From positions 1-64,000 of the IMG/VR virus record IMGVR_UViG_3300011472_000011: 64,000 nucleotides of DNA; one strand, written 5' to 3'. Source of the stretch: an uncultured virus (IMG/VR IMGVR_UViG_3300011472_000011). Taxonomy: Duplodnaviria > Heunggongvirae > Uroviricota > Caudoviricetes. The translations under genes were made by a program, and so were the position numbers. The notes under the pieces are model-generated. The model worked only from the letters and a program-made list of their open reading frames with translations, was not told the origin of the DNA and ran no database searches. This document shows, one piece after another, positions 10,019 to 47,190 of the stretch (positions are counted from its first letter, which is position 1; each line of letters opens with the position of its first letter).

Positions 10019-10522
10019 TTAATCAGTCCAATCTAATTCATTTTTTAGTTGTTTCTGTACTTTATCTACTATTCTTTTTAAAACATATCTCGACTTGCAA
10101 TATTTTGATTCAAGCTTTTTGTATGGAAGTTGATGAACATATCTATCAATAAAGATATCTGCTTCTGTTCTATCTGATATTATTCTTTTGATTTCATTTA
10201 TTAAAAGCCCATCCATAATGCTATCTTCAATACATTTTTCACTAAGCTCACATTCTGGTAAATATTCTCTTCCAACAGTTATTTTCATTTTTCTCAGCCA
10301 ATCTATTACATCGAATTTTATTTCTCTATATAAATAATTTATCTTTTTTACGCCCTCGACCTCTTTGTGTTTTTGTAAGGCTTGCCAAAGTGCTATTGTT
10401 ACAACCTGTTTTAGTTCATCTTTTTCTATATACTCTGGCACAAATTTAAAACTATTTGTTATTTTATAAATTAGCTTATCATACTGTCTAATTTCTTTTT
10501 CTATATCATTAATTTTACTCAC
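10019..10522 (-). CDS. phage sigma-70-family sigma factor-like protein
   Basis: Region 2-like DELKQ...ALWQA...YLYREI...DWLRK and C-terminal HTH-like region. Confidence 0.65.
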   Translation of the reverse strand: MSKINDIEKEIRQYDKLIYKITNSFKFVPEYIEKDELKQVVTIALWQALQKHKEVEGVKKINYLYREIKFDVIDWLRKMKITVGREYLPECELSEKCIEDSIMDGLLINEIKRIISDRTEADIFIDRYVHQLPYKKLESKYCKSRYVLKRIVDKVQKQLKNELDWTD

Positions 10523-18421: not shown

Positions 18422-19063
18422 TTAAGCAAGATTGTTTTGTATATTATTTAAAAATTTTTCATTGTATACTTTCTTATTATATCTAATCCAATCTATTATA
18501 GGCAGACCTTCATATCCTTTTTCCCAAACATACCATGCATAGCATTGGGCACCTTGATTGNNNNNNNNNNTCCAACAATCTATTCTATCTGAGAATATAT
18601 AAACCTTTTTCGGTGGATGATTCTTAAATAAATTTTCGTATCTGCTTTGACTTTCTAAAAATAACAGTTTTAAAAACATATAAACTCTGCCGTTTTCTCT
18701 AACATCATCTATCGCTTTTAAAATCATCTGTTGTGTATTTCTCTGATACGGTGGATTAGTAATAATAATATCATATTTATCTTTAAAATTAGTTTGTAAG
18801 TAGTCCGTGTTTCCTACACCATATCCTCTATCAACCAAGTCATAACTATCAACTTTTTGACCTGTTAATTTCTCTAATCTTTTTGAAAGATTGCCCTCAC
18901 CTGCCATTGGTTCTAATATTGATTTTCCAATGAAGTTTATGCCCTCTCTTTCAAGTAGCAAATCAATTGCTATTGGATTAGAAGCATAATAATTATATTC
19001 TTCTCTTTCATGTTCGGTATGATTAGAAGCTCCTAGTGTTTTATATACCCTATCTAATGTCAT
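18422..19063 (-). CDS. DNA methyltransferase (NPPY type); contains an assembly gap
   Basis: LEPMAGEG and IITNPPY; start likely ATG at 19063; 10 N at 18561-18570. Confidence 0.8.
   Translation of the reverse strand: MTLDRVYKTLGASNHTEHEREEYNYYASNPIAIDLLLEREGINFIGKSILEPMAGEGNLSKRLEKLTGQKVDSYDLVDRGYGVGNTDYLQTNFKDKYDIIITNPPYQRNTQQMILKAIDDVRENGRVYMFLKLLFLESQSRYENLFKNHPPKKVYIFSDRIDCWXXXXNQGAQCYAWYVWEKGYEGLPIIDWIRYNKKVYNEKFLNNIQNNLA
18561..18570. other. scaffold gap (10 N)
   Basis: nnnnnnnnnn in sequence. Confidence 1.
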
Positions 19064-19067
19064 AAAT

Positions 19068-19151
19068 TTACCACCTATATCTATCTGATAGACTACCAAG
19101 CAGCACCCCTAGAAGCCAACCTAGCATTATCAACAATGTTTTATCTTCCAT
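19068..19151 (-). CDS. 27-aa hydrophobic micropeptide, not in ORF track
   Basis: MEDKTLLIMLGWLLGVLLGSLSDRYRW fills the gap between primase and MTase exactly. Confidence 0.5.
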   Translation of the reverse strand: MEDKTLLIMLGWLLGVLLGSLSDRYRW

Positions 19152-21580: not shown

Positions 21581-22039
21581 TTACCGTTGTTTATCTAACA
21601 TTTCTTTAATAGATAGACTTGAATTATTATTGATTATTTTATTAAACTTCTTCTCTTTCTCCATCTCAGCAACTTCTTTTTCAATCACATATAGCATAAT
21701 TCCATAACCTTTAAATTCCTTACCTTTATCAAAGTAGTGTTTAAAGGCTTCTAACTGAACATCATAGCTATATCCTTGCTGTGCTAATTTAGCTATTTGT
21801 ATACATATAAGCCTAGTCTGTTCTTCTGTTAATTTATCAATCTCAGGATTTTGTTCTTTCATTTTAAACAATACTGCATTAAGTATTGCTTCTTTACCCT
21901 GTTTTAACTCAATCTTCTTTGTATCTTGACGCTGTTTTTTTACACATTTCGTATGAAAAGCTGTTCCGTTAACAATAGTACAACTGGGCTTACCCGTTAA
22001 AACACCTTTTTTACATAATGGGCAAATTTCTCTTGCCAT
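21581..22039 (-). CDS. zinc-finger replication-module protein
   Basis: CPLC...HTKC N-terminus; lies directly upstream of the helicase. Confidence 0.55.
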   Translation of the reverse strand: MAREICPLCKKGVLTGKPSCTIVNGTAFHTKCVKKQRQDTKKIELKQGKEAILNAVLFKMKEQNPEIDKLTEEQTRLICIQIAKLAQQGYSYDVQLEAFKHYFDKGKEFKGYGIMLYVIEKEVAEMEKEKKFNKIINNNSSLSIKEMLDKQR

Positions 22040-22054
22040 TTAATCACCTCATAG

Positions 22055-22402
22055 TTATCTTACTCCTAATACTCTCATAAGCCTTCCTTCTGCAATTAGC
22101 ATTTCTAATTTATTTAGCTTACCAATCTTAAAATCTAATCTTTTTTTTGATATAGTTTTTATTTGCTCTAGTTGAACAAATGATGGTTTGCTCAATTTTA
22201 CAGGCATATGACAGTAGTTTTCATTTTTTATCTGTGAAGTTATAGTTGCAACAATGATTGTAGCAAGCCTCTTATTTAAGTCATTGTTTTGTAGTATCAA
22301 AACAGGTCTACTACCCTTTTGTTCACTACCAACTGTTTCATCTTCAAAATTTGCATACCATATTTCACATCGTTCAACATCTAAATTTTTCTTCTCTGTC
22401 AT
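22055..22402 (-). CDS. mazF: PemK/MazF family endoribonuclease, no adjacent antitoxin
   Basis: GSEQ.G.RPVLILQN, ITS, LEQI.TISK.RL. Confidence 0.85.
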   Translation of the reverse strand: MTEKKNLDVERCEIWYANFEDETVGSEQKGSRPVLILQNNDLNKRLATIIVATITSQIKNENYCHMPVKLSKPSFVQLEQIKTISKKRLDFKIGKLNKLEMLIAEGRLMRVLGVR

Positions 22403-22459
22403 AGCATTTCACCTTTGAACTTGGTATAGATGATATAAAACCATCTATACCAATTAATA

Positions 22460-23620
22460 TTATTGCAAACTCTTTGCGTAAACTAATAATTCCTTTGCTT
22501 TTTCTATATCTTCAATTTGTCCGAATTTAGAACATCCAACATGTTCTTTTAATGTACTTACTATCTTTTGAGCTGTTATTTGTTTATCCTTTAATAATTG
22601 AGTAAAGATTTCCTGTATCTCATTAACCACTACTTCTAAGTCATTGTTATTTGACTCTTCAGGAGCAGGATCTTCATGGAATTCAGACCTTTCTTGCTCT
22701 GGAATTTTCTCTGCCTCATTATTTTTCTTTTTATCTTTTTCTTCTTTAGACTTATCTTTTGTAGTAGTGTTTTTAGTTGACTTAACCTTTTCTTTGTTAG
22801 ATACACCTGTAAATTTACTTGCAAAAGGCAACTTGCCAACATTATCAACTACAATATTGAATTCTTTAAAGATTGCTTCATCAAATGCCTTTCTGATGTT
22901 ATAAGCTGCCTCTTCAGGGCTATCTCCGTACTCTATAAATTCAGGGAAGAAAAGCAATCTTGCTTTTGCTTCAAAATCTCCATCACTTCTAAAGTAGATT
23001 CTTCTTACTATTTTTTCATTTCCATCTTCATCTTTTATTTTTTCAAACACGCAATATCCAACAAAATCTACTCTTCCAACAATAGTGTCCATAGCAGAAT
23101 TCGCAATAGATGGCATGATTTTGTCATACTTTTCCCCACGCTTAGGTTTTATTTCTTTGTCTTTTATATGAGAAACATATACCGGAGACAAGCCTAAATC
23201 TTCAAGGTTTTTCATTTTAAGTTCAAATTCTCCACGAACTGCATTCCAACCTTTACCCCATTCACCTTCTGAGGGATCTGTCCATCCATTATCTAAACAC
23301 ACCTTGTCCTTACAGCAATCAAATGCTACATCCGCTGTATCCATTATTGGAGTCTTAAATGGCATTTGTTTACCTGCCTTAGCTCCTGCCTGCAACACTT
23401 TAATATCAGTTCCAAATGTTCTCCAATCAGGTGCTCTCCATTTCTTAGCTCTTAATGCATTTTGTCCTTTTTCCCACTGAAAAAATGTAGGATCGTCGAA
23501 TAAAACAGCACACAAACTACTTTTACCAAAGCCATAATGTCCATAAAATGACCATGTATAATCATTAATATTAACTTTAGGTTCCTCTATCTCTATATCA
23601 AAAATACTTTTTTCTGCCAT
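22460..23620 (-). CDS. AAA_24/Sak4-like ATPase
   Basis: YGHYGFGKS, IMDTAD, G.GW, SH...K; Lys/Glu-rich tail. Confidence 0.75.
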   Translation of the reverse strand: MAEKSIFDIEIEEPKVNINDYTWSFYGHYGFGKSSLCAVLFDDPTFFQWEKGQNALRAKKWRAPDWRTFGTDIKVLQAGAKAGKQMPFKTPIMDTADVAFDCCKDKVCLDNGWTDPSEGEWGKGWNAVRGEFELKMKNLEDLGLSPVYVSHIKDKEIKPKRGEKYDKIMPSIANSAMDTIVGRVDFVGYCVFEKIKDEDGNEKIVRRIYFRSDGDFEAKARLLFFPEFIEYGDSPEEAAYNIRKAFDEAIFKEFNIVVDNVGKLPFASKFTGVSNKEKVKSTKNTTTKDKSKEEKDKKKNNEAEKIPEQERSEFHEDPAPEESNNNDLEVVVNEIQEIFTQLLKDKQITAQKIVSTLKEHVGCSKFGQIEDIEKAKELLVYAKSLQ

Positions 23621-23669
23621 ATAATTAACTCCTTCATTTAATTTTAAATAAGATTGTATTGTGTGCTAT

Positions 23670-24347
23670 TTAAAAAGGTGACTCTTCCAAATCATCATCA
23701 TTAGTTAAATCATCAGCCAGCACTACACTGTCAATTTTCTCAACTTTAAACATTTGAGATCTTCCAACTATATCTCCATAATCATCATATTCAATCTCAT
23801 TAAGAATCTGACCTTTAAATTTAGCATTACAGCCTTTCTCAATTCCGCTCTCAAATACTAAATCTTCTGTAGCCTGAATATTAAATATAGAAGGTTCCTT
23901 TTCAACTAAATTACCTTCTTTATCAGTATAATTTTCATCATGACTGATTTTAATTAATGCTCCATCAGGTATTTGTCTTATTTGTTCAACAATTCCCTGA
24001 AGAATGAATGTTACATTATAACGGTCATCTTTAACATAAGCTTCAACCTTATTAGCTGAAATACTTCTGTCAATACCTTTTTGTCCTGTTCTAGTCTCGA
24101 ATTCATTCTCAACAACTTTTCCTACAGCTTCAACTATAGAGCCAATAGGAAATAATTCTTTGATATTCTTATCTTTATTTGGTTCACTCTCAGTTGGGAA
24201 TAATGTTATTTTAGCCTTATTTCCCTGCAACGTGTCCACTTCCATTGATAAGAAATGCCCTTTCTTTTTACCTTCATACTCAACAATCTCTACTCTTGTT
24301 ACTTTACCTCTTGCCGTACCTTTGTTAAAAAACTTTGCTTTTGCCAT
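23670..24347 (-). CDS. single-stranded DNA-binding protein-like (two OB folds, acidic tail)
   Basis: Ends DDDLEESPF; AGGAGG RBS before ATG at 24347; first gene of replication operon. Confidence 0.65.
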   Translation of the reverse strand: MAKAKFFNKGTARGKVTRVEIVEYEGKKKGHFLSMEVDTLQGNKAKITLFPTESEPNKDKNIKELFPIGSIVEAVGKVVENEFETRTGQKGIDRSISANKVEAYVKDDRYNVTFILQGIVEQIRQIPDGALIKISHDENYTDKEGNLVEKEPSIFNIQATEDLVFESGIEKGCNAKFKGQILNEIEYDDYGDIVGRSQMFKVEKIDSVVLADDLTNDDDLEESPF

Positions 24348-24422
24348 TATTTGTCCTCCTATTATTTTATAATTAAGCAAGCTTGTTTTATGTATAAAAA
24401 CTAAAAACGCTACTGCCATATA

Positions 24423-24451
24423 ATTTTATCATGTCATGCGTCTTTTGTCAA
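24423..24451 (-). promoter_or_regulatory. sigma-A promoter of replication operon; repeated element downstream at 24373-24386
   Basis: TTGACA-17 bp-TAAAAT with TG extension. Confidence 0.75.
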
Positions 24452-24479
24452 TACCTTAAAAAAATATTTTTTATTATTT

Positions 24480-24683
24480 TTAGCAATAACAATAAAATTT
24501 ATCACTGTAAAAACTAACTAAACTTATTAAACGAATATCATTAACTCCATTTTCATTAATTAAATTTTCAATTATACCTATCCCCGTTTTGGGGTTTATA
24601 ATTCCAGATATTATTTCATCTTCTATGTATTGCAGCATACCTTCCAAAACGTTTTCTTCCATTATTATTGTGTTTTTTTGCAT
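24480..24683 (-). CDS. small acidic hypothetical protein
   Basis: 67 aa, AAGGAG RBS. Confidence 0.55.
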   Translation of the reverse strand: MQKNTIIMEENVLEGMLQYIEDEIISGIINPKTGIGIIENLINENGVNDIRLISLVSFYSDKFYCYC

Positions 24684-24745
24684 GATAATACTCCTTTTCT
24701 AAAATATGTAGTTGATTTTTATAAAAGAGTATGTTAATATTAGTT

Positions 24746-24833
24746 TATAGAATGTATGTTTGTTAGCATACTCTTTTTAAATAGGAAACTGGTTGCTCCC
24801 GCTCAAAGTTGCTACCATGTTTCTTATTTTTTT
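24746..24833 (+). ncRNA. putative cis-antisense sRNA (about 90 nt)
   Basis: Plus-strand promoter TTGATT-17-TAATAT (24712-24740) and terminator stem AATAGGAAAC.../GTTTCTTATT-T run; antisense to the leader of 24480..24683. Confidence 0.5.
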
Positions 24834-24843
24834 AAGCTTTGTT

Positions 24844-25260
24844 TTATGAGTAAGGACTTATTGGTTGTAAGTTTAAACCTACAGCTCCTAAAGCAACTTC
24901 TACATCTTCTTTATTTTGCCATTGAGGTTCAACGGATATAATATCTGAATATCCTACATTTAACTCATCAGGATATATTCTATTTACTCCGTATGTTAAA
25001 AAGTCATACCAATATTTTACCATATATTTATTAATATCTTCTTCATTCATATCCTTAAAAGCTGCTATTGAACTAGAAATAGACAAATAAATATTTCTAT
25101 AATTGTATCCATAAGGAAAGCTCGTCCTTCTTGTATAGTGAGTAATCCAACTCTGTATTATAATAATACTCTTTCTTCCAAGAATAGGATCAAACCCAAC
25201 ATTACTTAACATGCAAGCAGAATTTTTAAATGCTCTAGTCCGACAATCTGTATTATCCAT
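24844..25260 (-). CDS. hypothetical protein
   Basis: 138-aa ORF with RBS and own promoter. Confidence 0.6.
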   Translation of the reverse strand: MDNTDCRTRAFKNSACMLSNVGFDPILGRKSIIIIQSWITHYTRRTSFPYGYNYRNIYLSISSSIAAFKDMNEEDINKYMVKYWYDFLTYGVNRIYPDELNVGYSDIISVEPQWQNKEDVEVALGAVGLNLQPISPYS

Positions 25261-25295
25261 TTTACCACTTCCTTTTGTTCAAATAGTTTAAATAT

Positions 25296-25324
25296 ATTGT
25301 AACATCTTGAAAGAAGCTTGTCAA
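25296..25324 (-). promoter_or_regulatory. sigma-A promoter
   Basis: TTGACA-17 bp-TACAAT with TG extension. Confidence 0.7.
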
Positions 25325-25484
25325 CCCCGAACTTTTATAAATTCCGTTAATTTCACTTATATTCTTTAATTAACAGTTACTTATTTATTTCACTTCAATT
25401 AGTTTAATTCATTTCATTTCTTTTCATTTATTTTCATTTATTTTAATAGTTTAACATTTAAAAACACTATTCAATACAAACCTT

Positions 25485-25498
25485 CGAACAATAGTTCG
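25485..25498. promoter_or_regulatory. LexA (SOS/Cheo) box
   Basis: CGAACAATAGTTCG = CGAAC-N4-GTTCG, just downstream of a promoter. Confidence 0.7.
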
Positions 25499-25513
25499 AT
25501 TCTTATATGGTCA

Positions 25514-25542
25514 ATTTTAACATATGATTTTGATAAAGTCAA
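25514..25542 (-). promoter_or_regulatory. sigma-A promoter, probably LexA-repressed
   Basis: TTGACT-17 bp-TAAAAT with TG extension. Confidence 0.65.
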
Positions 25543-25600
25543 TAATAACTAATTGGGATTTTTTATAATATATTGAATCCAATTTATTATTCAAATTTCA

Positions 25601-26719
25601 TCATATTTTAAACTTTTCAGGATATAAAAATTGAGCAATTTTAATATATCTCCTAGTTACTGTAATATTAGTATCACCCATAATTGCCATAACTTTAGCT
25701 TCTGGTATTCCATCTGCTAATAATTTAACTCTTCTGCTGTCTCTTATAGTTTCTGTTGTTATTTTCTTTTCTTTTTCATTAACAGCCTTGTTTAACTCAT
25801 TCTCATTGTTAAATTCCTTCGCGAGCTCGTTTAAATAATACTCTTTTACAGCTTTACTAAGTATTGTATTTATAGTTGCAGGATTAATCCTTTCATCATT
25901 CACATGCCTGTAAGTCTGAAATAGATATTCAGATCTCTGTATTGGATCATACGGCTCTCCAGTTCTATCAGACCTCCTTTTCCTAGTTTCATTTGTTTCA
26001 TTTATTAAATCTGTTTTCTCTGTTAAAAATTCATTTATTAATACAATTAAATCAGGAGTTAATTCTGCTATTCTATCTATTTCACCATCATTATTATAAA
26101 TCTTTAAATACGTTTTTTCGAAATCTATTGCTTTTTCTTTTAAATTTCTTAATTCAATTCTCTTTAAACCAAACCTATATAGTAAAGTAATTAAAAGCTC
26201 ATCTTGTTTTCTGCTTGTTGAATTAATTATGCCGATAATTTCTTCTTCTCTTAAGGCTACTTCTTCTATATTTTTACTTTCCATAGGTATCTTCAAAGAT
26301 TCAATATTTGGAAAATAATCATAATATTTAGCATTAACATAATTAAATAATTGTTGTAATGCTGTTTTATATATTCTTTTAGTTGATTGAGTAACACTAT
26401 CAGATAAGTCTTTAATCCAATTCTCAACATCTTGATATGTTATTTGTTTTGCATTATTTTCCTTATATAAATCAAAGACATCATTAATGTTATCCTTCTT
26501 ATATACAAAGTTAAAAAACGAATGAATCGCATACTTATATGTATTTTTTGTTCCATAGCTGAAACCTTCGATTTCTTTCATGTAATCATCATATAAATAT
26601 GGTATTAAAATATCAACATTATCTGTATTTTCCAATACCTTTTCTTTAAATTCATTTTCATCTAACAAACCTAAATCAATTAATTTTTTTACAGTATCAG
26701 CATCAAATTTATTACTCAC
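25601..26719 (-). CDS. tyrosine-recombinase-fold protein with degenerate active site (candidate repressor)
   Basis: Integrase architecture, but FGLKRIEL (R to K), TETIRDS (HxxR lost its H), MGDTN (H to D); Tyr retained in TRRY. Confidence 0.75.
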   Translation of the reverse strand: MSNKFDADTVKKLIDLGLLDENEFKEKVLENTDNVDILIPYLYDDYMKEIEGFSYGTKNTYKYAIHSFFNFVYKKDNINDVFDLYKENNAKQITYQDVENWIKDLSDSVTQSTKRIYKTALQQLFNYVNAKYYDYFPNIESLKIPMESKNIEEVALREEEIIGIINSTSRKQDELLITLLYRFGLKRIELRNLKEKAIDFEKTYLKIYNNDGEIDRIAELTPDLIVLINEFLTEKTDLINETNETRKRRSDRTGEPYDPIQRSEYLFQTYRHVNDERINPATINTILSKAVKEYYLNELAKEFNNENELNKAVNEKEKKITTETIRDSRRVKLLADGIPEAKVMAIMGDTNITVTRRYIKIAQFLYPEKFKI

Positions 26720-26733
26720 CTTTTCACCCTTTC

Positions 26734-27064
26734 TTATTTTATTAATCCCTTTTTCTTTGCTTTTTCTAATTTAATATTTGCATTAAAAAGTTCATTTTCT
26801 ATTTTTCTTTTGTTATTTTCTTTTTCTAAACTCCATTTCCATTCAAGAATACTACATATTAATTTAGCCATCTTTCCAATTAGCGATTTATTTTTTAATT
26901 CTACAAAAACTGGTCTATCATTTATTATTATCTTGTTAAGTTGATTTTCTGCTTTTCTTTTTTGCTCCTCTGCCTTAGCTACTTGCAATTCAGCAGCAAC
27001 TAAATTCCTTATTTGTTTTTCTGATAAAACATATACCTTTTCATTTTTATCATTGATATTTCAT
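26734..27064 (-). CDS. small coiled-coil protein; the RBS-linked ATG at 27064 is out of frame by one base
   Basis: GAGGAGG-ATG AAA TAT CAA TGA; removing one A gives MNINDKNEKVYVLSEKQIRNL... continuous with ORF 26734..26988. Confidence 0.5.
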
Positions 27065-27096
27065 AAACCTCCTCTTCATTAATAATTTATAAGACC

Positions 27097-27126
27097 ATTT
27101 TAATATTAAATAATATCGTTTGTCAA
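27097..27126 (-). promoter_or_regulatory. sigma-A promoter for the repressor-like operon
   Basis: TTGACA-18 bp-TAAAAT. Confidence 0.55.
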
Positions 27127-27155
27127 CACATTATTTGTACTAGTTTTTTATTAAA

Positions 27156-28349
27156 CTAGTATTTAATTAACCCTTTTGCCATTTTCTCTAATACACCAAT
27201 AAACCAATTAGGGTCTTGGTTGATATTGCCTTCAACAAAATCTTTTAGTTCCTCCGAAGCATCTTCTGGAATAACTATGTTCACTCTAACTTTTCGCTCC
27301 TGCTCTACTACATTAAATAGCTCCTTTATTTCTGTTTTATTTAATGGCTGCACATTTGTTTTATTATCTTTATTTTTATCATTAAAAGCTTTTTTAACAA
27401 CTTTAGCAGCTTTAGATTTTAATAATTCTGCCGGTTCAGATGACTTTTCAATAATATCTAATAAGTTTCTTTGTGTTTTTTCATCTACAAGACCAAGTTC
27501 AAAACCTGTATTTGGTGCTATTTCTTCATTATCAAGTTTTTCTTTAAACTCAGGGATAAGATTATTTAATCTAAGATATCTACTTACAGTCACACCAGAA
27601 ACTTTAAATTCTTCTCCAACCTTTTCTAAATAGTTGAATTTTTCACCGCTTTCAGACTTTTGCCCTTGTCTTTTTCCAATTTGCCTTGCTTTTATTTCAT
27701 ATGCCTTAGCTATTTCCAATGGTTTTAAATCATCTCTTTGAGCAACATTTGTATCAGAAATTATTTCTTCTGCATCATCATCATTGACGTTCTTAATTAT
27801 AGAAGGCACTTTAAGTAATCCTAAATCTTTACAAGCATCAACCCTATTTCTTCCTGCTAGTATATCAAACCTTCCGTTATTAGGTCTTACAAGTATAGGA
27901 TTTAAGACTCCTAAATCTGCAATGCTTGATTTTAATTCGTTGAACTTAGAATCACTTAGTTTTGAAAAGAAATTCAATGGTGAATTGTCTAATAAGTCAA
28001 TATCAAGTTCTTTTACCTGTCCTGATTTCATAGCTACATCAATATCACTAACCAATTCCACGTCACTATTAACTTCAGTGTCATCATTTGGAAGCATATC
28101 ATCTAAGCTGCATAACTCCATCTTATCTTCTGTACAGTTTAATCCAGGTGTATCTTCTGTATTATTTATTTCCAGATTGTCCTCAATTATACCAAGCTCA
28201 ATATCTGCCACTGGATTATTAGTGTAATAATCTACCAAAGCATTCACTATCTCTTGTTTCTTTAATCCTGAAAAATCAACACCTACTTTTACAGCCTCAT
28301 CTCTTAATTCAAATAAATTCATTTTTTGTATTTGTTCTATTTTACTCAT
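27156..28349 (-). CDS. parB: ParB/Spo0J-like protein with N-terminal Rho-N-like helical domain
   Basis: L..SI...GVLNPILVRP, ILAGRNR..A, N..QRDDL.P.E.A, HTH VSRYLRL. Confidence 0.85.
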   Translation of the reverse strand: MSKIEQIQKMNLFELRDEAVKVGVDFSGLKKQEIVNALVDYYTNNPVADIELGIIEDNLEINNTEDTPGLNCTEDKMELCSLDDMLPNDDTEVNSDVELVSDIDVAMKSGQVKELDIDLLDNSPLNFFSKLSDSKFNELKSSIADLGVLNPILVRPNNGRFDILAGRNRVDACKDLGLLKVPSIIKNVNDDDAEEIISDTNVAQRDDLKPLEIAKAYEIKARQIGKRQGQKSESGEKFNYLEKVGEEFKVSGVTVSRYLRLNNLIPEFKEKLDNEEIAPNTGFELGLVDEKTQRNLLDIIEKSSEPAELLKSKAAKVVKKAFNDKNKDNKTNVQPLNKTEIKELFNVVEQERKVRVNIVIPEDASEELKDFVEGNINQDPNWFIGVLEKMAKGLIKY

Positions 28350-28374
28350 ATTTTCTCTCCTCTTATTTTTTAAT

Positions 28375-28671
28375 TTAATTTTTTATTAAGCTAAATATAT
28401 CTTCCCATGTTTCATATTTATCTAAATCTTCTTGTAATACTAACAGTGCATATTTACCTTCTATTTCTTCTGATGTACCATAACTATTAAAACTTGGGCA
28501 TGAACCATATCCACCCATCATAGGTTGTATATGTGAATACACAATTACCATTTTCTCATGGTTTTCCATATGAGTAGCAAAACTGTCTATCTGTATAATA
28601 CTATCAGATGCTTTACTTTTATAAATATCACCTATTTTCATTTCGTGAACCTTCCTTTTACTTTTCATCAC
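28375..28671 (-). CDS. hypothetical protein
   Basis: ORF in operon. Confidence 0.55.
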   Translation of the reverse strand: MMKSKRKVHEMKIGDIYKSKASDSIIQIDSFATHMENHEKMVIVYSHIQPMMGGYGSCPSFNSYGTSEEIEGKYALLVLQEDLDKYETWEDIFSLIKN

Positions 28672-28700
28672 TTAAAATCAATATAATATAATTAACCTTA

Positions 28701-28886
28701 TTAATATTTATTAACTCCAATATTAATATACATGCTATTCCTATATCCTTGTTCTAGCTTTACAAATTTTCCTATTCCAATCTCATGCGGTTCTGCATCA
28801 TCGTATTCATAATCGTATATATATGGAATTACCTCCGTTTCATCATTAATATCTTTAAATAAATCCTTCCATTCTTTAGCTTTCAT
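28701..28886 (-). CDS. hypothetical protein
   Basis: ATG at 28886 overlaps the integrase stop; GAGGAG RBS. Confidence 0.55.
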   Translation of the reverse strand: MKAKEWKDLFKDINDETEVIPYIYDYEYDDAEPHEIGIGKFVKLEQGYRNSMYINIGVNKY

Positions 28887-29887
28887 ACATCCAACTCCTC
28901 TGCCCATTCATTTGCTGGATTATCTTTAGTTATTTTATTTGTATGGTCATATCTTCTTGTTGTACTTGATGAAATATGACTAACTCTATCTTGAACAACT
29001 TCCATAGGTATACCCGCATCTAAAGATTCAGTTATATATGTGTGCCTTAAACAGTGTGGGTGAATGCTACTTGCATCTAATCCAGCTTTTTTAGCTACCG
29101 CCTTAACAACTCTATAAACAGTTTGTGTTGTTATGGGTCTAGTTTCTTTATAACTTCTTGAATATGTAACTAATGTATGAGATACAAACAAATACCTATT
29201 TTTACTTTGCAAAGTCAATCCTCTCATACTTAGATATTCTTCTATATACTTCATAATAATATCAGCTACAACAACCATCCTGTCTTTCATACCTTTACCG
29301 ATAAATTCAATCACATGATTTTCATTGTATATTCCAAAATCACTTAGTTTTATATTTGCAATCTCTTCCCTTCTCATGCCAGTTGTTGCTAACAAAAGTA
29401 TGATTATTTTATTTCTTAACCCAATAATTGATTTATCTTCATTTAGAGCCTCCATCATCTTTTTAACTTCATCCTTAGTTAAAGCCCTGGTATTAGAGTA
29501 ATTCCTTGTTTTAAACCTCACAGCTCCTTCTTCTGTAGATACAGGGTTGTAGTCCATAATACCTACGTTTTTTCTACATAAATATTTATAGAATTTAGAT
29601 AGTGCTTGTAGTTTTCTGTTAACAGTTGAAGTTGATGCTCCATCAACAACTAATTTTTTAGCATATTTGTTTATCATAGCCGGGCTAACACTTCTAACCA
29701 TGTCTATTGTTACCTCGTAAACACTTTCGACATTAAAAAAAGACCTTATATCTGATAAATAAGCTCTCTTAGTTTCATCTGCTAATTGTCCTGCAAATTC
29801 TGCAATATACGGTTTAAAATATTTAATAGGTTGGCTTTCACTTTTTTCTAAAGCAAAGTCATAAGTTTCATTTAGGTTTTCAAACAA
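28883..29887 (-). CDS. tyrosine recombinase/integrase (XerC/D-like), intact active site
   Basis: TGMRREE, HPHCLRH, VSH, TTRRY. Confidence 0.9.
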   Translation of the reverse strand: MFENLNETYDFALEKSESQPIKYFKPYIAEFAGQLADETKRAYLSDIRSFFNVESVYEVTIDMVRSVSPAMINKYAKKLVVDGASTSTVNRKLQALSKFYKYLCRKNVGIMDYNPVSTEEGAVRFKTRNYSNTRALTKDEVKKMMEALNEDKSIIGLRNKIIILLLATTGMRREEIANIKLSDFGIYNENHVIEFIGKGMKDRMVVVADIIMKYIEEYLSMRGLTLQSKNRYLFVSHTLVTYSRSYKETRPITTQTVYRVVKAVAKKAGLDASSIHPHCLRHTYITESLDAGIPMEVVQDRVSHISSSTTRRYDHTNKITKDNPANEWAEELDV

Positions 29888-29911
29888 TTATTATCACCTC
29901 CATTGAATTTA

Positions 29912-30280
29912 TCAAGTGATTGAATAGCCATTCTCATTAAGTTCAAAACCTAATTCTTTCAATCTTCTTACATGTTCAGCAACAAACTCTTTTCCTGCTA
30001 TTTCTGCTTCTTTTTTCGTTTCAAACACTTTAGTTTTCCACTTTCCTAATATCAAGTCTAAATTATTAATATTTACTATTATAGGCTCAATCTCTGAAAA
30101 CCTTGTGTGACATAACATATCTTGGCTGCATCTTCCTTCAAATGCTTTAGGATATAGCTTATCAAATTTTTCTTTTTGGAATAAGCAAGCATCACAGCAG
30201 TCTGTATGAAATCTATAAACAATAGTTCCTAAAGGAACAGGTAAGTTTATTATTTTCTTGTCTTGACTTATAAAACTCAT
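29912..30280 (-). CDS. hypothetical phage protein
   Basis: LPVP.G..VY...VFETK.EAE phage pattern. Confidence 0.6.
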   Translation of the reverse strand: MSFISQDKKIINLPVPLGTIVYRFHTDCCDACLFQKEKFDKLYPKAFEGRCSQDMLCHTRFSEIEPIIVNINNLDLILGKWKTKVFETKKEAEIAGKEFVAEHVRRLKELGFELNENGYSIT

Positions 30281-30304
30281 ATTTATATATTCTCCTTACT
30301 TACT

Positions 30305-30673
30305 TTACTTTTCAAACTCTTCCTTTAATTTCCGATACGCTTCGTATCGCTCTTGTTTTAAACGTTCCTGTAATTTTAATTCTTTATCTTTTATCTCTTC
30401 TTTCTTTTCTTCAAGAAAATCATTTAAAGCTGCATCTGATGTTAAACATAATTTAGGTACAGACAAAGTATTAAGTATATCTCCTTCAAAATCTATAAGC
30501 TGCATTTTCACCTCATCACCATAAAATTCAAAATTAATCGTATCTTGTGACCAACATTTAGTCTCAAATTTAGTAAAAATTTGAATCCCCCTGTTTTGAA
30601 GTTTAAATGATAGAACTTTCAAATGTTCAGTCATCTCACAATACTGATCTAATTCCTTTTCTGTTAATATCAT
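30305..30673 (-). CDS. hypothetical protein
   Basis: ORF with RBS; ends Y.KLKEEFE. Confidence 0.6.
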   Translation of the reverse strand: MILTEKELDQYCEMTEHLKVLSFKLQNRGIQIFTKFETKCWSQDTINFEFYGDEVKMQLIDFEGDILNTLSVPKLCLTSDAALNDFLEEKKEEIKDKELKLQERLKQERYEAYRKLKEEFEK

Positions 30674-31054: not shown

Positions 31055-31081
31055 AAAAAAGCACCTTTATTCAGATGCTTT
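31055..31081 (-). terminator. intrinsic terminator after rtcB
   Basis: AAAGCATCT-GAATAA-AGGTGCTTT then T run. Confidence 0.6.
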
Positions 31082-32290
31082 AAAGTTATATATTGGTTTA
31101 ATTATATCGATGATTTCAACTGTATCTTTAATGTTTTCTATTATCTCCTCTATTGGTTTATAAGCCATAGGAGCTTCATCTAAAGTTGATTGATTTACAG
31201 ATGTTGTATAAATTCCATCCATTTGATTCTTAAAATCATCTAAAGAGATACTCTCCTTTGCTTTCGCTCGACTCATTAGTCTCCCCGCTCCATGTGGAGC
31301 TGAATAGTTCCAGTCATCATTGCCTTTGCCAACACATATAAGACTTCCATCTCTCATATTAATAGGTATAATGACTTTTTCTCCTTTGTATGCACTTATA
31401 CTTCCTTTTCTGATTATATTATCCTTGAAATTTATATAGTTATGAATTGTTTCAAAGTTACTATAGTCATCTATAGTCTTTTCAAACATTTTATCTAAAA
31501 TAATATTTGCCATAGTACGTCTATTTAATGTCGCATATTCTTGACAAATTTTCATATCAGCCAGGTATCTATCTCTCCATATGCCTTCTAAAAAACATAG
31601 TGCTGGAGGATAATCAGGAGTTGTTGTTTTATATTCCTTTTCCAATTCCTTTAAAACTTTTTGTATCTCTTTTCTCCTACCAGTTTCTTTGTATTCTTTG
31701 ATTATTTCTTCTCTATTGACGTAATATTCTTCTCTCCCACTTCTAAGCTCTATAGCCATTCTTTGGTAATATTCAGCCACCTGTTTACCTAAGTTTCTGC
31801 TCCCTGAATGGATTACCAGATATTGGTTGCCTTTGCTATCCTTGTTAATTTCGATGAAGTGATTACCACCACCTAAAGTTCCTACACTTTTCTTGATTCT
31901 TTTTGTATCTTTTAGTTCTCTATAGCAATACAATTCCTCAAATTTCTTAAATTCAGTAATTACGCTCTCATGTGTATTCTTGCCACTTGGCACATATTCA
32001 TTAATTACATTATCAAGCTTTTTGAGGTCCACATATGTGTCTTTCAGCTCTATAACTTGCATTCCGCACCCAATATCGACACCTACGATGTTTGGAATAA
32101 CTTTGTTTCCTAAATCCGCTGTAAATCCTATTACACATCCTGCTCCTGCATGAGTGTCCGGCATTATTCTGATTTTACATTCATTTGTAAAATCTTGATT
32201 GCATAAATTAATAATTTGAGAGATAGTTTCTTCATCTATGTTATTAGTAAATACTTTTGCTGTATTATATCTGCCTTGAATTTCTATCAT
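31067..32290 (-). CDS. rtcB: RtcB family RNA ligase
   Basis: MPDTHAG, VGVDIGCG, GTLGGGNHFIE, HSGSR, HN, RKG, SAPHGAGR, DEAPMAYK. Confidence 0.93.
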   Translation of the reverse strand: MIEIQGRYNTAKVFTNNIDEETISQIINLCNQDFTNECKIRIMPDTHAGAGCVIGFTADLGNKVIPNIVGVDIGCGMQVIELKDTYVDLKKLDNVINEYVPSGKNTHESVITEFKKFEELYCYRELKDTKRIKKSVGTLGGGNHFIEINKDSKGNQYLVIHSGSRNLGKQVAEYYQRMAIELRSGREEYYVNREEIIKEYKETGRRKEIQKVLKELEKEYKTTTPDYPPALCFLEGIWRDRYLADMKICQEYATLNRRTMANIILDKMFEKTIDDYSNFETIHNYINFKDNIIRKGSISAYKGEKVIIPINMRDGSLICVGKGNDDWNYSAPHGAGRLMSRAKAKESISLDDFKNQMDGIYTTSVNQSTLDEAPMAYKPIEEIIENIKDTVEIIDIIKPIYNFKASE

Positions 32291-32317: not shown

Positions 32318-32673
32318 TTATTCTTGCACTTCAAACTCTCTTATTATAGCGTCCCATTCTTCCCATCTTTTTGCTCCTTCGATTTTTAAAACTTCGTTAT
32401 ATTTATCTCTAAATTCTTTAACCTTCTTTTCATTAAAAGATACCATCTCTATATTTTCAGAATAATCATCTCCAGAACCTTTAGAAGATACAACCATAAA
32501 AACCTTTGTAGCTACTGATTGTCCCTCTGGAACATACTTTTTAAGTATTATTTCACCTTCTCTATCAGTAAATATTTCTAAAGGATCTCCTTCCCTAATT
32601 CTCAACGTTCTTCTTTAGGGATAACCACTCTTCCCAAGTCATCAATTCTTCTGACAATTCCAGTTGCTTTCAT
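32318..32673 (-). pseudogene. AbrB/SpoVT-family regulator, frameshifted near 32608
   Basis: MKATGIVRRIDDLGRVVIPKE in one frame continues as TLRIREGDPLEIF.DR.GEIILKKY in another. Confidence 0.8.
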
Positions 32674-41930: not shown

Positions 41931-41944
41931 AGTTTTTAATACTC

Positions 41945-42395
41945 CTTTTTTATTTAATTAAGCATTTTAAATGCTTTATAAAGGATATAAACAGTATTTA
42001 ATTTATATCCTTGAAAAACACTTAAAAGTGTCTAAATCGTCCGGATATAGTATAAGTTAATTACTTATACATGGTATTTTAAATCGTTCACGTGTTCACC
42101 TTTTAACACTTCGGGAATAGTCAGCTTTTAATTAACAGTTTCGACACTGTAACGTTCATTATTGATTAAAAGTCTAGAAATCAGACTTAAACGCTTTATC
42201 TGCCTATATTCTATAATTCATCTACCACATGAATTATAAGTCTTGCCTTGTCCGGCAAAATATCAGTTTATAACGTGTTTTATTGTTCCACGTTCTGCAA
42301 GGTCACTATATAGATATACTATACTTACAGATACATATGTGATTGTCAATGTTCAGCTTTGATTGAGCTAATGTAGTTAAGCATCACTCACTCTA
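41945..42395 (-). ncRNA. putative long structured leader RNA with boxA-like motif
   Basis: ORF-free, about 10 inverted repeats; GAACATTGACAATCACAT at 42354-42337. Confidence 0.45.
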
Positions 42396-43463
42396 TTAAT
42401 ATTATATAAGCTTGTGTTTTACTCAATTAAGAGTAATTTACTTGACTGTAGCGCTGTCGGCGGTAATCGGTGAAAACTGATTACATTAACAGTATAAAGC
42501 TTTATAAAAATAATGCACTCACGAAATAAGTTCATTTAATATTATATAAGCTTGTTATTTAAAATGTATGTAATACAATCTTATGTAATCTTAAAATTGC
42601 TTCAAATATCTCTTAATTACTCTGTTTTTCTAATTTAATATCTAAAAAACGTTGAAATTTCAACATAAAATAATTTGATAGATTTTTTAAATATTTTTAA
42701 GTTTTTCTTTATTACAGATTGAAATAAGGACAAATCATTGAAATATCAATGTAAAATAGAATTAAGAATGTCTTGAATAAAATAATTGTTTTATTATTAT
42801 GTGTAATAAGATTAAGTTAAGAGTTTATATAAGCAGCATTAATGTATATTTGTGTATAATGTAGTAATTGCAATATATTGGATAGTGTTTTTTAGTCTAG
42901 AATAGGTATGTTATTTACTTATCTGAATAAAATTGAATAGATATACATTACTTGATGCATATTTATTAAATATTGCTTGATACAGGTTTGAATGTATTGG
43001 TGTAATAGTTTATTAGTATACTGGTTGGAGGTGCAAAATTATTTGCACTTGTTTGTGTATTATTCAAAATAGTACAGTTTCTGATTCAATACTCTATCTG
43101 ATATGAAGTATTGTCTGCTGCAAATATCATGCAATAATTTGCACATGTATCATAATCGTTATTATCATACATTGACAGGGGGCATTAAACTTCGAACGCT
43201 TATTTGTCTCTGACTCCAAATCGGCGGGGGTACCCATCAATCAAAATGTTCCATTTTCATATCTCTCCTATCCCCTTTTCTATATTAAATTCCAACGATT
43301 TTTTATAACACTATATTTTAAATCGCCTAACCTTTTTGTTAATCTTATCAACTTATAATATTTGTTCTTATATTCTAAACTTTTATTTATTATTGACCGC
43401 ATATCAAAATCATCTATTGTATTTTATCACACAACTTTAACTAAATAATGACAATTTTTCAAT

Positions 43464-43489
43464 AAAAAAGACTACATTTAAGTAGTCTT
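43464..43489 (-). terminator. intrinsic terminator of the moron cassette
   Basis: AAGACTAC-TTAAAT-GTAGTCTT-TTTT. Confidence 0.65.
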
Positions 43490-43498
43490 AAAAATAAT

Positions 43499-46994: not shown

Positions 46995-47071
46995 CTGGGT
47001 GTAGTGAAGTCAGGTATCACGGATGATTTGGGATCATCAGGTCGCAGGTTCAAATCCTGCCACTCAGACCA
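46995..47071 (+). tRNA. tRNA-Pro (TGG)
   Basis: Acceptor CTGGGTG/CACTCAG, anticodon stem GATGA/TCATC with loop TTTGGGA, GGTTCAAATCC, encoded CCA. Confidence 0.92.
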
Positions 47072-47114
47072 TAACGATCAGGCTCATGTTCCTTACGAGG
47101 ACTGGGCTAATTAT

Positions 47115-47190
47115 ATACGGGTAGCTCAGTTGGTAGAGCGTTGGTTTGAAGAGCCAAGCGTCGTGGGTTCGAGCCCCACCCTGTATGCCA
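47115..47190 (+). tRNA. tRNA-Phe (GAA), atypical identity elements
   Basis: Acceptor ATACGGG/CCTGTAT, D-arm TAGCTCAGTTGGTAGAGC, loop TTGAAGA, GGTTCGAGCCC, encoded CCA. Confidence 0.85.

Follow-up and report, generated by a model that had tools for sequence, protein, structure and literature searches.

How could a temperate phage without a recognisable classical repressor control its lysogeny, and could a recombinase that has lost its catalytic residues serve for this purpose? These questions are raised by positions 23,670 to 29,887 of a stretch of DNA from an uncultured caudovirus, consisting of the first 64 kb of the 76,551-bp IMG/VR virus record IMGVR_UViG_3300011472_000011 (record class linear); the whole stretch of 64,000 nucleotides (nt) that was analysed is called the window in the following, and the complete record the contig. 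No CI/Cro-type helix-turn-helix (HTH) repressor and no S24 peptidase domain was found among the scanned open reading frames (ORFs) of the 76.5-kb contig (Pfam and PHROG scans of ORFs of at least 35 amino acids (aa), the Pfam scan covering the contig except for the tail genes at 64–70 kb). A preliminary description of this DNA had proposed an undescribed lysis-lysogeny circuit with an SOS promoter, an antisense-gated small protein and a replication operon. Here we argue, with a probability of roughly 45%, that the region is the lysogeny control of a temperate phage and a probable analogue of the sro-sar switch of phages SPbeta and phi3T, built from different proteins.

Gene order and the degenerate recombinase

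The ORFs that had been named for this locus, and their order on the minus strand, were all recovered from the ORF listing. Read in the direction of transcription, an integrase is followed by a ParB-like gene, a promoter, a small ORF, a degenerate recombinase, a LexA-boxed promoter, a gene for a protein of 138 aa, a structured spacer, an ORF of 67 aa and the promoter of a replication operon. At the centre of this arrangement stands the following gene:

25601..26719, minus strand: catalytically degenerate Xer-like tyrosine-recombinase homologue of 372 aa, candidate integrase-fold repressor

Its product has the core-binding and catalytic-like architecture of a tyrosine recombinase (PF00589, 2.7e-11; PF13495, 2.9e-4; XerA model, 7e-22 over residues 48–361). 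Catalytic residues were read from alignments to the XerC-like structure 4a8e and to the neighbouring integrase, and four of the six are replaced (R1 by K, the beta-hairpin K by I/D, H by E, and H/W by D), with R2 and Y retained. The only homologue found among 5.8 billion proteins, P0002 (65% identity), carries the identical substitution pattern. Because the loss of the four residues is kept in P0002 while the recombinase domains are retained, the pattern fits selection for a non-catalytic role, and at the level of sequence the designation of this protein as a dead recombinase was appropriate. Two insertions set it apart from the neighbouring integrase; one of them is basic, shows good conservation in P0002 (INETN.TRKRRS.RTGE) and could add DNA contacts.

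The LexA box and the promoters around it

Between the degenerate recombinase gene and the genes of the 138-aa and 67-aa proteins lies a LexA box, and four promoters were considered together with it:

27097..27126, minus strand: promoter TTGACA-18-TAAAAT, 11/12 sigma-A-type, located ahead of the 84-aa ORF and the gene of the degenerate recombinase
25514..25542, minus strand: distal promoter TTGACT-17-TAAAAT with TG, 10/12, just upstream of the LexA box
25485..25498, no strand assigned: LexA (Cheo) box CGAAC-N4-GTTCG, CGAACAATAGTTCG, perfect Firmicute match, at about +9 to +23 of the distal promoter
25394..25444, no strand assigned: A-tract array with a 10-bp period and 5.2 copies of the minus-strand unit AATAAATGAA, between the LexA box and the proximal promoter
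25296..25324, minus strand: proximal promoter TTGACA-17-TACAAT with TG, 11/12, directly before the 138-aa gene
24423..24451, minus strand: promoter of the replication operon, TTGACA-17-TAAAAT with TG, 11/12

The sequence CGAAC-N4-GTTCG is the LexA box consensus of Firmicutes. The same consensus is used in the preprint on the antirepressor Sar (bioRxiv 10.1101/2025.11.27.690993). An exact match occurs once in the window (25485–25498), none of 100 shuffled sequences gave any, and the site is the only perfect intergenic LexA box in the whole contig. It lies 15 nt downstream of the −10 element of the 10/12 TG promoter 25542–25514, i.e., just downstream of a promoter, so that the LexA-boxed promoter of the preliminary description is a real feature of the DNA, at which LexA binding may be predicted. 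Likewise present are the other promoters that had been named: in the 39 intergenic stretches of the contig there are four sigma-A-like sites with 11 of 12 matches, three of which (27126, 25324 and 24451) fall within this 3-kb stretch. As a class, promoter-like sites are not enriched in the region (42 vs. 42.9 ± 7.0 in shuffles). The A-tract array is unique and is a candidate for bent DNA or for a binding array.

A perfect LexA box also suggests a simpler arrangement, in which LexA itself is the switch. In the tectivirus GIL01, the lytic switch is governed by host LexA acting with the small phage protein gp7 at a phage promoter, and the locus is similar in that a LexA site lies at a phage promoter and a small phage protein would be involved. 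The transcript of the boxed promoter would, on this account, run through the small genes into the replication operon, DNA damage would switch on replication directly, and the products of the small genes would have accessory functions or act in early host takeover, with no antirepressor among them. Besides the perfection and uniqueness of the box, it is favoured by the fact that, from the box as far as the primase, all genes share a strand and are closely spaced, and by the hairpin between the two small genes, which on the sense strand is weak (−10.1 kcal/mol) and has a poor U run, making read-through likely. However, promoters 25324 and 24451 lie past the box and would render the replication genes constitutive unless another repressor acts, and the conserved degenerate recombinase next door would be left without a role. 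GIL01 also differs in having no integrase-fold repressor, whereas strong LexA-independent promoters are found here downstream of the box. We therefore consider a switch made of LexA alone quite unlikely.

The two small genes and the structured spacer

If LexA controls a repressor-inactivating protein here, as in the sro-sar analogue that we prefer, the candidates are the two small genes downstream of the box, which are separated by a spacer with two hairpins:

24844..25260, minus strand: 138-aa protein, whose gene comes first after the LexA box and which is a candidate for an SOS-induced effector or an antirepressor
24779..24836, plus strand: hairpin B followed by a run of seven U (U7), an intrinsic terminator in plus orientation (−16.2 kcal/mol on the plus strand, −14.4 on the minus strand)
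24723..24777, plus strand: hairpin A with a 17-bp stem (−18.2 kcal/mol on the plus strand, −10.1 on the minus strand)
24677..24705, plus strand: weak promoter-like site TTTGCA-17-TAAAAT, 9/12, from which an antisense RNA of ~125 nt would start near 24712
24480..24683, minus strand: 67-aa acidic ORF with a good ribosome-binding site, isoelectric point (pI) 4.2

The 138-aa protein has seven relatives (E 2e-33 to 2.5e-4) among 1.84 billion representative proteins, their alignment shows a conserved C-terminal PYS, and by these sequence comparisons the gene is a member of a real small uncharacterised protein family. With the relatives supplied as alignment, the AlphaFold2 (AF2) model reached a mean predicted local distance difference test (pLDDT) score of 91.3, i.e., a confident fold, for which Foldseek gave no match in the PDB at E ≤ 0.001; the best wide match with VIA-align was to 2gpi, a DUF1488 protein, with a Z of 5.5 that lies within the stated noise range of the tool. 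The 67-aa ORF is an orphan that matched only itself in the protein search, and its model from the single sequence consists of three helices (pLDDT 70) without a fold match in the structure search. Matches in the ESM Atlas had only scores under 0.9 for the small proteins. Net charges are −2.4 for the 138-aa protein and −6.5 for the 67-aa protein, compared with −8.5 for YopT, the antirepressor of SPbeta. Codon usage was dropped as a coding test for small ORFs, because small and spurious ORFs overlap: the small ORFs scored 0.40–0.53, which is usual for the annotated small ORFs of the contig and also inside the range of spurious ORFs (95th percentile 0.61). The two small genes of the preliminary description are there as far as their features go, one with seven relatives and the other acidic.

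On the plus strand, positions 24712–24840 fold into two hairpins with a U7 end (−34.5 kcal/mol, z −5.9), and a U run follows hairpin B on this strand only. All genes here are on the minus strand, and the strand asymmetry of the hairpins favours a plus-strand RNA ending near 24835; hairpin B with U7 is the proposed 3′ end of this candidate cis-antisense RNA. The −35 element of the plus-strand promoter-like site shares positions with the start codon of the 67-aa ORF. Hairpin A, when read on the minus strand, is followed by UUUUAU and may be a leaky terminator of the 138-aa transcript. The sense RNA offers the 3′ arm of hairpin A another partner, namely the ribosome-binding site of the 67-aa ORF (−8.7 kcal/mol, z −3.2); a pairing of this kind, between a CUCUUUU arm and a Shine-Dalgarno sequence, arises easily by chance. 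No Rfam match was obtained in 23500–30500.

Short structured cis-antisense RNAs limit antirepressor expression in the immI region of P22 (ant and the sar antisense RNA) and in the c4-ant systems of P1/P7. The likeness consists of a candidate short structured cis-antisense RNA at an antirepressor candidate; in P22, however, the sar RNA covers the ribosome-binding site of ant, whereas the RNA predicted here would cover the spacer and the 3′ end of the 138-aa message and no ribosome-binding site.

It was also considered that there is no circuit at all and that this is an ordinary early region, in which the LexA box, the plus-strand promoter-like site and the pairing with the ribosome-binding site are chance products of AT-rich DNA and the hairpins form a bidirectional terminator. 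No related locus was confirmed in the collections searched, promoter-like sites occur at chance frequency (42 vs. 42.9 in shuffles, as given above), the 67-aa ORF is an orphan, and the codon scores of the small ORFs fall inside the spurious range. Against chance speak the exact 14-bp LexA box, which appeared in 0 of 100 shuffles and is positioned at a promoter, the clustering of three of the contig's four 11/12 promoters, the hairpin pair with its z of −5.9 and markedly greater stability on the plus strand, and the conserved loss of catalytic residues; we regard an ordinary early region as very unlikely.

Comparison with SPbeta and phi3T

The SPbeta record was fetched and its proteins were classified by family scan, which assigned YopP to the integrase family PF00589, YopQ to the DndB family, YopR to the MrpR families and YopT to the Pfam family Yopt. 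The DndB family of YopQ is one that we take to belong to the ParB/Srx superfamily. In the nomenclature of the sro genes, SroD corresponds to YopP, SroE to YopQ and SroF to YopR (=MrpR), and the Sar/YopT antirepressors are represented by Pfam PF09467 and PDB 2DLB.

According to two papers, YopR/MrpR is the SPbeta master repressor, has a recombinase fold with catalytic residues lost, and binds ten promoter regions at the repeated SPBRE (PMC8612738, PMC10516654). The Sar preprint reports that in phi3T, monomeric SroF recognises a non-palindromic box of 26 bp, and that Sar (phi3T_99 in phi3T, the 72-aa YopT in SPbeta) is a small acidic dimeric antirepressor that mimics DNA and is de-repressed by the SOS response; a LexA box precedes sar, which is located one ORF downstream of sroF, and the Sar proteins of phi3T and SPbeta are <20% identical to each other (bioRxiv 10.1101/2025.11.27.690993). 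Because a LexA-controlled Sar/YopT directed against an integrase-fold repressor is documented there for SPbeta/phi3T, the type of circuit can no longer be called undescribed, contrary to the preliminary description. In the full-text literature search, the combination of an integrase-like master repressor with a LexA-controlled antirepressor was found only in the work of this preprint.

The likeness to SPbeta is one of architecture. Both loci have, on one strand, an integrase-family gene, a ParB-superfamily gene (presumably, in the case of YopQ), a degenerate integrase-fold gene, an SOS box and one or more small genes, among them an acidic one of ~70 aa; the SOS box follows shortly after the −10 element (13 nt for AGAACGCACGTTCC upstream of yopT, 15 nt here); the 67-aa ORF (pI 4.2) compares with YopT (72 aa, pI 4.3); and in both a separate recombinase would serve for integration, with no CI-type repressor. 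By sequence, the resemblance to the yopP-yopQ-yopR block that had been noted did not hold, as neither the ParB-like protein nor the degenerate recombinase has a specific match there: BLASTP gave no match between the ParB-like protein and YopQ, and the integrase is 24% identical to YopP over its N-terminal part, as any two recombinases are to each other. The Pfam family Yopt matched neither small protein.

There are further differences. The middle gene encodes a true ParB/Noc protein here and a DndB-family protein in SPbeta, the degenerate protein has a Xer-like recombinase origin with R2 and Y retained, and the upstream integrase is catalytically intact. The present locus also has a second promoter that is independent of LexA, a candidate antisense RNA and two candidate effectors instead of one, and it lacks AimR/AimP, a divergent HTH gene of the yopS kind and an HTH gene of the YopO kind; the host lineage is also a different one (29% GC here). 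Regarding arbitrium, neither an AimR-like nor a TPR match was found among the scanned contig ORFs (Pfam, PHROG; ORFs of at least 35 aa), in agreement with the earlier statement that no such genes are seen.

Proposed mechanism and points against it

Given the position of the SOS box and the small genes, it is plausible by analogy with Sar that an SOS-induced small protein acts here as antirepressor of a recombinase-derived repressor. The steps that we infer are as follows. In the lysogen, promoter 27126 would express the degenerate Xer-like protein (25601–26719), which would act as a DNA-binding integrase-fold repressor; the ParB/Noc-like protein, and possibly the intact Xer-type recombinase, would help it in the way SroE and SroD help SroF; and host LexA on 25485–25498 would shut the distal promoter 25542. 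DNA damage would remove LexA, and the 138-aa protein would be made, as would the 67-aa protein, for which control by the LexA box requires read-through of the leaky hairpin. Either the 138-aa or the 67-aa protein would then inactivate the repressor and open both promoter 25324, in a positive feedback, and the replication promoter 24451. The convergent antisense RNA of ~125 nt (~24712–24835, plus strand) would pair with the spacer between the two small genes, damp the leak and set a threshold. Apart from the likeness to SPbeta, we count in favour of this proposal that there is no alternative repressor in the scanned ORFs, that the promoters cluster here, that the catalytic loss is conserved, that the LexA box is perfect and unique, that the 138-aa protein comes from a family with a confident fold, and that a separate intact integrase at the contig end supports integration; for the antisense RNA speak the plus-strand hairpins with their z of −5.9 and U7 end.

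LexA-controlled antirepressors are known from coliphage 186 (Tum), the Salmonella Gifsy prophages (GfoA/GfhA) and N15 (AntC). They share with the proposed circuit a host LexA box that gates a small phage protein inactivating a non-cleavable repressor; the difference is that their targets are HTH repressors, while the presumed target here has an integrase fold, and there is no sequence relationship.

Several results weigh against the proposal. To begin with the presumed repressor, the local Pfam scan did not list the MrpR families PF22822/PF22823 for it even at E ≤ 10 (a precomputed table lists PF22823.3, which the local scan did not reproduce), BLASTP gave no match to YopR, and the hhalign probability for this pair was 0.1%, so by sequence the protein is probably not a member of the MrpR families. 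Its candidate target sites would be the 10-bp A-tract array and a 16-copy element described below, and nothing ties either of them to this protein; an operator motif common to the four local promoters was not found, the shared 12–16-mers being only AT-rich strings. Another point concerns the strong LexA-independent promoter 25324, which stands between the LexA box and the 138-aa gene, and SOS control of that gene hence needs a second repressor input. As for the candidate antirepressors, the 138-aa family and YopT gave an hhalign probability of 0.1%, the 67-aa ORF and YopT no BLASTP alignment, and neither small-protein model had a listed structure match with the YopT fold (the 67-aa model being all-helical and of low confidence); the 67-aa ORF may not even be a gene. 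Concerning the antisense switch of the preliminary description, the strand-asymmetric hairpins and the U7 terminator stand, and the 9/12 plus-strand site, the sole candidate for starting such an RNA, is a chance-level match.

Lastly, no related locus was confirmed in viral, metagenome or genome contigs with the degenerate recombinase, the ParB-like protein, the Sak4-like protein, the 138-aa family, P0004 and the C-terminal alignment as queries. Neither megablast with 22000–30000 in the phage and plasmid collections nor tblastn with the degenerate recombinase in phages produced a match, and the DnaE-type polymerase is at most 37% identical to that of any deposited phage. With tblastn, the ParB-like protein matched 32 phage records; six of these were compared with 20 window proteins, and in none was an integrase, a degenerate recombinase or another syntenic gene found nearby.

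The intact recombinases, the ParB-like protein and a possible role in genome maintenance

The genes upstream of the degenerate recombinase and a further integrase at the end of the contig bear on another explanation, which concerns the maintenance of phage DNA:

28883..29887, minus strand: Xer-type tyrosine recombinase of 334 aa, TTG start, ribosome-binding site GGAGGTG
28701..28886, minus strand: small acidic ORF (a longer 68-aa form is listed as 28701–28907)
28375..28671, minus strand: 98-aa ORF of no known family in profile scans
27156..28349, minus strand: ParB/Noc-like DNA-binding protein of 397 aa with an N-terminal SAP/Rho_N-like motif, ParB_N and an HTH region
26734..26988, minus strand: 84-aa basic Lys-rich ORF, pI 9.9, TTG start, no family match, codon score 0.42 (usual for small ORFs here)
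75380–76339 of the contig, minus strand: second intact integrase and third tyrosine-recombinase gene of the record, PF00589 4.3e-33, adjoining holin and M23 endolysin

The integrase at 28883–29887 consists of a SAM-like N-terminal domain and a PF00589 domain (5.6e-34), and its matches to the XerC/XerD/XerA models (1e-40 to 1e-42) remain under the equivalog cut-offs of these. Its catalytic set R, K, HxxR, H and Y was read from the sequence and is complete (GMRREE, GKGMKDR, HCLRH, SHISS, RRY), so that the gene was rightly called an active integrase in the sense of intact motifs. The small acidic ORF that follows has no family match in Pfam, PHROG and other profile scans; its likely ATG and the stop codon of the integrase gene share nucleotides (ATGA), an overlap suggestive of translational coupling to the integrase.

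In the ParB-like protein, ParB_N (2.2e-15), HTH_ParB (5e-4) and Rho_N (7e-4) were detected, TIGR00180 scored over its cut-off (70.6 bits), and the protein aligns to Noc and, with 2.2e-15 over residues 124–321 and through the HTH region, to Spo0J 1vz0, which bears out the earlier naming of the gene as ParB. The GERRxR motif is the nucleotide-binding (cytidine triphosphate, CTP) motif of ParB/Noc clamps, and it is degenerate here, with GRNRVD opposite GERRYR of Spo0J. Compared with the CTP-dependent clamps ParB, Noc and KorB, the protein is alike in its ParB_N and HTH regions and differs in this motif, in an extra N-terminal SAP/Rho_N-like segment and in that no ParA was found among the scanned ORFs.

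For the 84-aa ORF, both the start position and its reality as a gene are uncertain, because of the TTG start without a clear ribosome-binding site. In the leader of promoter 27126 (27009–27074), a strong ribosome-binding site GAGGAGG precedes two overlapping mini-ORFs of 4 codons (27064–27050) and 14 codons (27053–27009), which may be a leader-peptide arrangement or may mean that the start of the 84-aa ORF was mis-called.

At the end of the record, holin and M23 endolysin genes are followed on the opposite strand by the intact tyrosine integrase at 75380–76339, which supports temperate integration; since this second integrase adjoins the lysis cassette, the internal one (28883–29887) is probably not the prophage integrase, and the internal recombinase genes are freed for another role. 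A 12-bp direct repeat, TTGAAATTCCAA, occurs near both contig ends (10–21 and 76469–76480) and may be an att core. Although the completeness of the record was estimated at 55% (CheckV), it may thus represent a nearly whole integrated prophage, which we note as a lead only.

With the integrase role filled by the gene at 75380–76339, the internal genes could be a Xer/ParB module of genome maintenance, in which the intact Xer protein and its degenerate paralogue resolve multimers or concatemers, the inactive partner being architectural, and the ParB-like protein marks or segregates phage DNA in the manner of plasmid prophages; the downstream genes under LexA control would then be unrelated SOS accessory genes. 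This would agree with the best scores of both recombinase homologues, which are those against the XerC/XerD/XerA models, and with the closeness of the ParB-like protein to partition-type proteins of the Spo0J/Noc kind. However, no ParA or ParM partner was found among the scanned ORFs in the 76.5 kb (the contig may be incomplete), no repeated GC-containing palindrome usable as parS or dif was found in the contig, GERRxR is degenerate, the integrase by the lysis cassette and the 12-bp end repeats point to integration instead of plasmid carriage, and the degenerate protein is conserved despite the loss of four catalytic residues. On balance, we judge a maintenance module to be unlikely.

The replication promoter and a contig-wide repeated element

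Downstream of promoter 24451, which the preliminary description had called operator-bearing, the following features were found:

24365..24394, minus strand: copy of a repeated element with the palindromic core ACAAGCTTGCTTAA at 24386–24373, between promoter 24451 and the SSB start codon
23670..24347, minus strand: OB-fold protein resembling single-stranded DNA-binding protein (SSB), 225 aa from the ATG at 24347, with the acidic C-terminal tail ...DDDLEESPF

The operon runs in the order SSB, Sak4-like, MazF-like, 152-aa protein, DnaB and primase down to 19154. The copy at 24365..24394 is probably what had been taken for the operator. The element is ~25 nt long, and its approximate consensus is aaACAAKCTTRCTTAAaatTAAAt; with a weight matrix derived from nine copies and sites counted at ≥ 12 bits over the whole contig, 16 sites were obtained, as compared with 0–3 in 30 shuffles:

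Starts of the 14-nt core, copies 1–8: 1091, 4533, 8607, 10534, 10590, 14321, 18422, 23644
Starts of the 14-nt core, copies 9–16: 24373, 38539, 41243, 42402, 42542, 42575, 46022, 53860

Of the 16 copies, twelve belong to the minus-strand gene block and three (42575, 46022 and 53860) fall within or next to the plus-strand block, all fifteen in sense orientation; copy 10590 is the palindromic core read backwards within a sigma-A-like promoter. The usual position of a copy is after a stop codon and ahead of the ribosome-binding site that follows, as also holds for the one before the major capsid gene, and there is no fixed relation to sigma-A-like promoters. In view of the contig-wide copies and the missing relation to such promoters, an operator was rejected as the likeliest role; most likely, the element serves as promoter for a factor specified by the phage, and roles as an SPBRE-like operator or as an RNA processing signal are less likely. 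The 11/12 promoter 24451 is present as a consensus site, and its supposed operator is one of 16 copies of this element. AAGCTT alone was rejected as a meaningful motif, as it is too common (64 sites).

Strong hairpins follow copies 38539 and 41243. A sigma-like gene (10019–10522, 167 aa, only region 2 detected) is itself preceded by an element copy; its promoter is sigma-A-like with a reversed copy in the spacer, and a sense copy lies 26–39 nt downstream of the predicted start. Three copies fall within 41931–43498, a stretch of 1.57 kb without ORFs of ≥ 40 aa and without an Rfam match, where 42542 (minus) and 42575 (plus) form a divergent pair and 42402 and 42542 are near-identical copies 140 bp apart; this stretch may be a regulatory hub, an origin or a place of non-coding RNA genes.

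Genome setting

The window has a GC content of ~29%. Minus-strand genes occupy 1–45 kb and serve replication and nucleotide metabolism (DnaE-type polymerase, helicases, ribonucleotide reductase, methyltransferases, the sigma-like protein, RtcB), and plus-strand structural genes begin near 48 kb. The RtcB RNA ligase is encoded at 31067–32290. Two tRNAs (Pro-TGG and Phe-GAA) are located at 46995–47190, and a sub-threshold match to YrlA (Y RNA-like, 30.3 bits vs. 69) across the pair is probably caused by the tRNAs themselves. A run of 10 N is present at 18561–18570, inside the methyltransferase gene 18422–19099.

Host MazEF takes part in the lysis-lysogeny decision of SPbeta/phi3T, which makes a MazF/PemK-like endoribonuclease gene of interest that lies within the replication operon (22055–22402, minus strand) and has no adjoining MazE gene. 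The N-terminus of the ORF at 32318–32605 (minus strand), 10 kb upstream of it, matches the second half of an AbrB/SpoVT/MazE-type domain.

Implications for lysogeny control

Should the maintenance module be the right explanation, the region would be an ordinary one. A more far-reaching version of the sro-sar analogy, which we hold to be doubtful, is that a Xer-type recombinase was domesticated as master repressor independently of MrpR/SroF, together with a ParB/Noc-type partner, an SOS-induced antirepressor and a threshold set by an antisense RNA; the antirepressor would be either the 138-aa family, with a presumably new fold and a conserved C-terminal PYS, or the 67-aa acidic protein. Integrase-fold repressors combined with LexA-gated DNA-mimicking antirepressors have so far been documented only in SPbeta-like arbitrium phages of Bacillus, and a second, sequence-unrelated instance, in an uncultured phage of 29% GC that has no arbitrium genes, would show that the design is widespread or convergent. 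It would also provide a new repressor/antirepressor pair for structural study, and annotation pipelines should in that case stop treating every prophage "integrase" as a recombinase. If the more far-reaching version is true, an integrase-fold repressor with a LexA-gated antirepressor would be a general solution among large Firmicute phages, without dependence on arbitrium.

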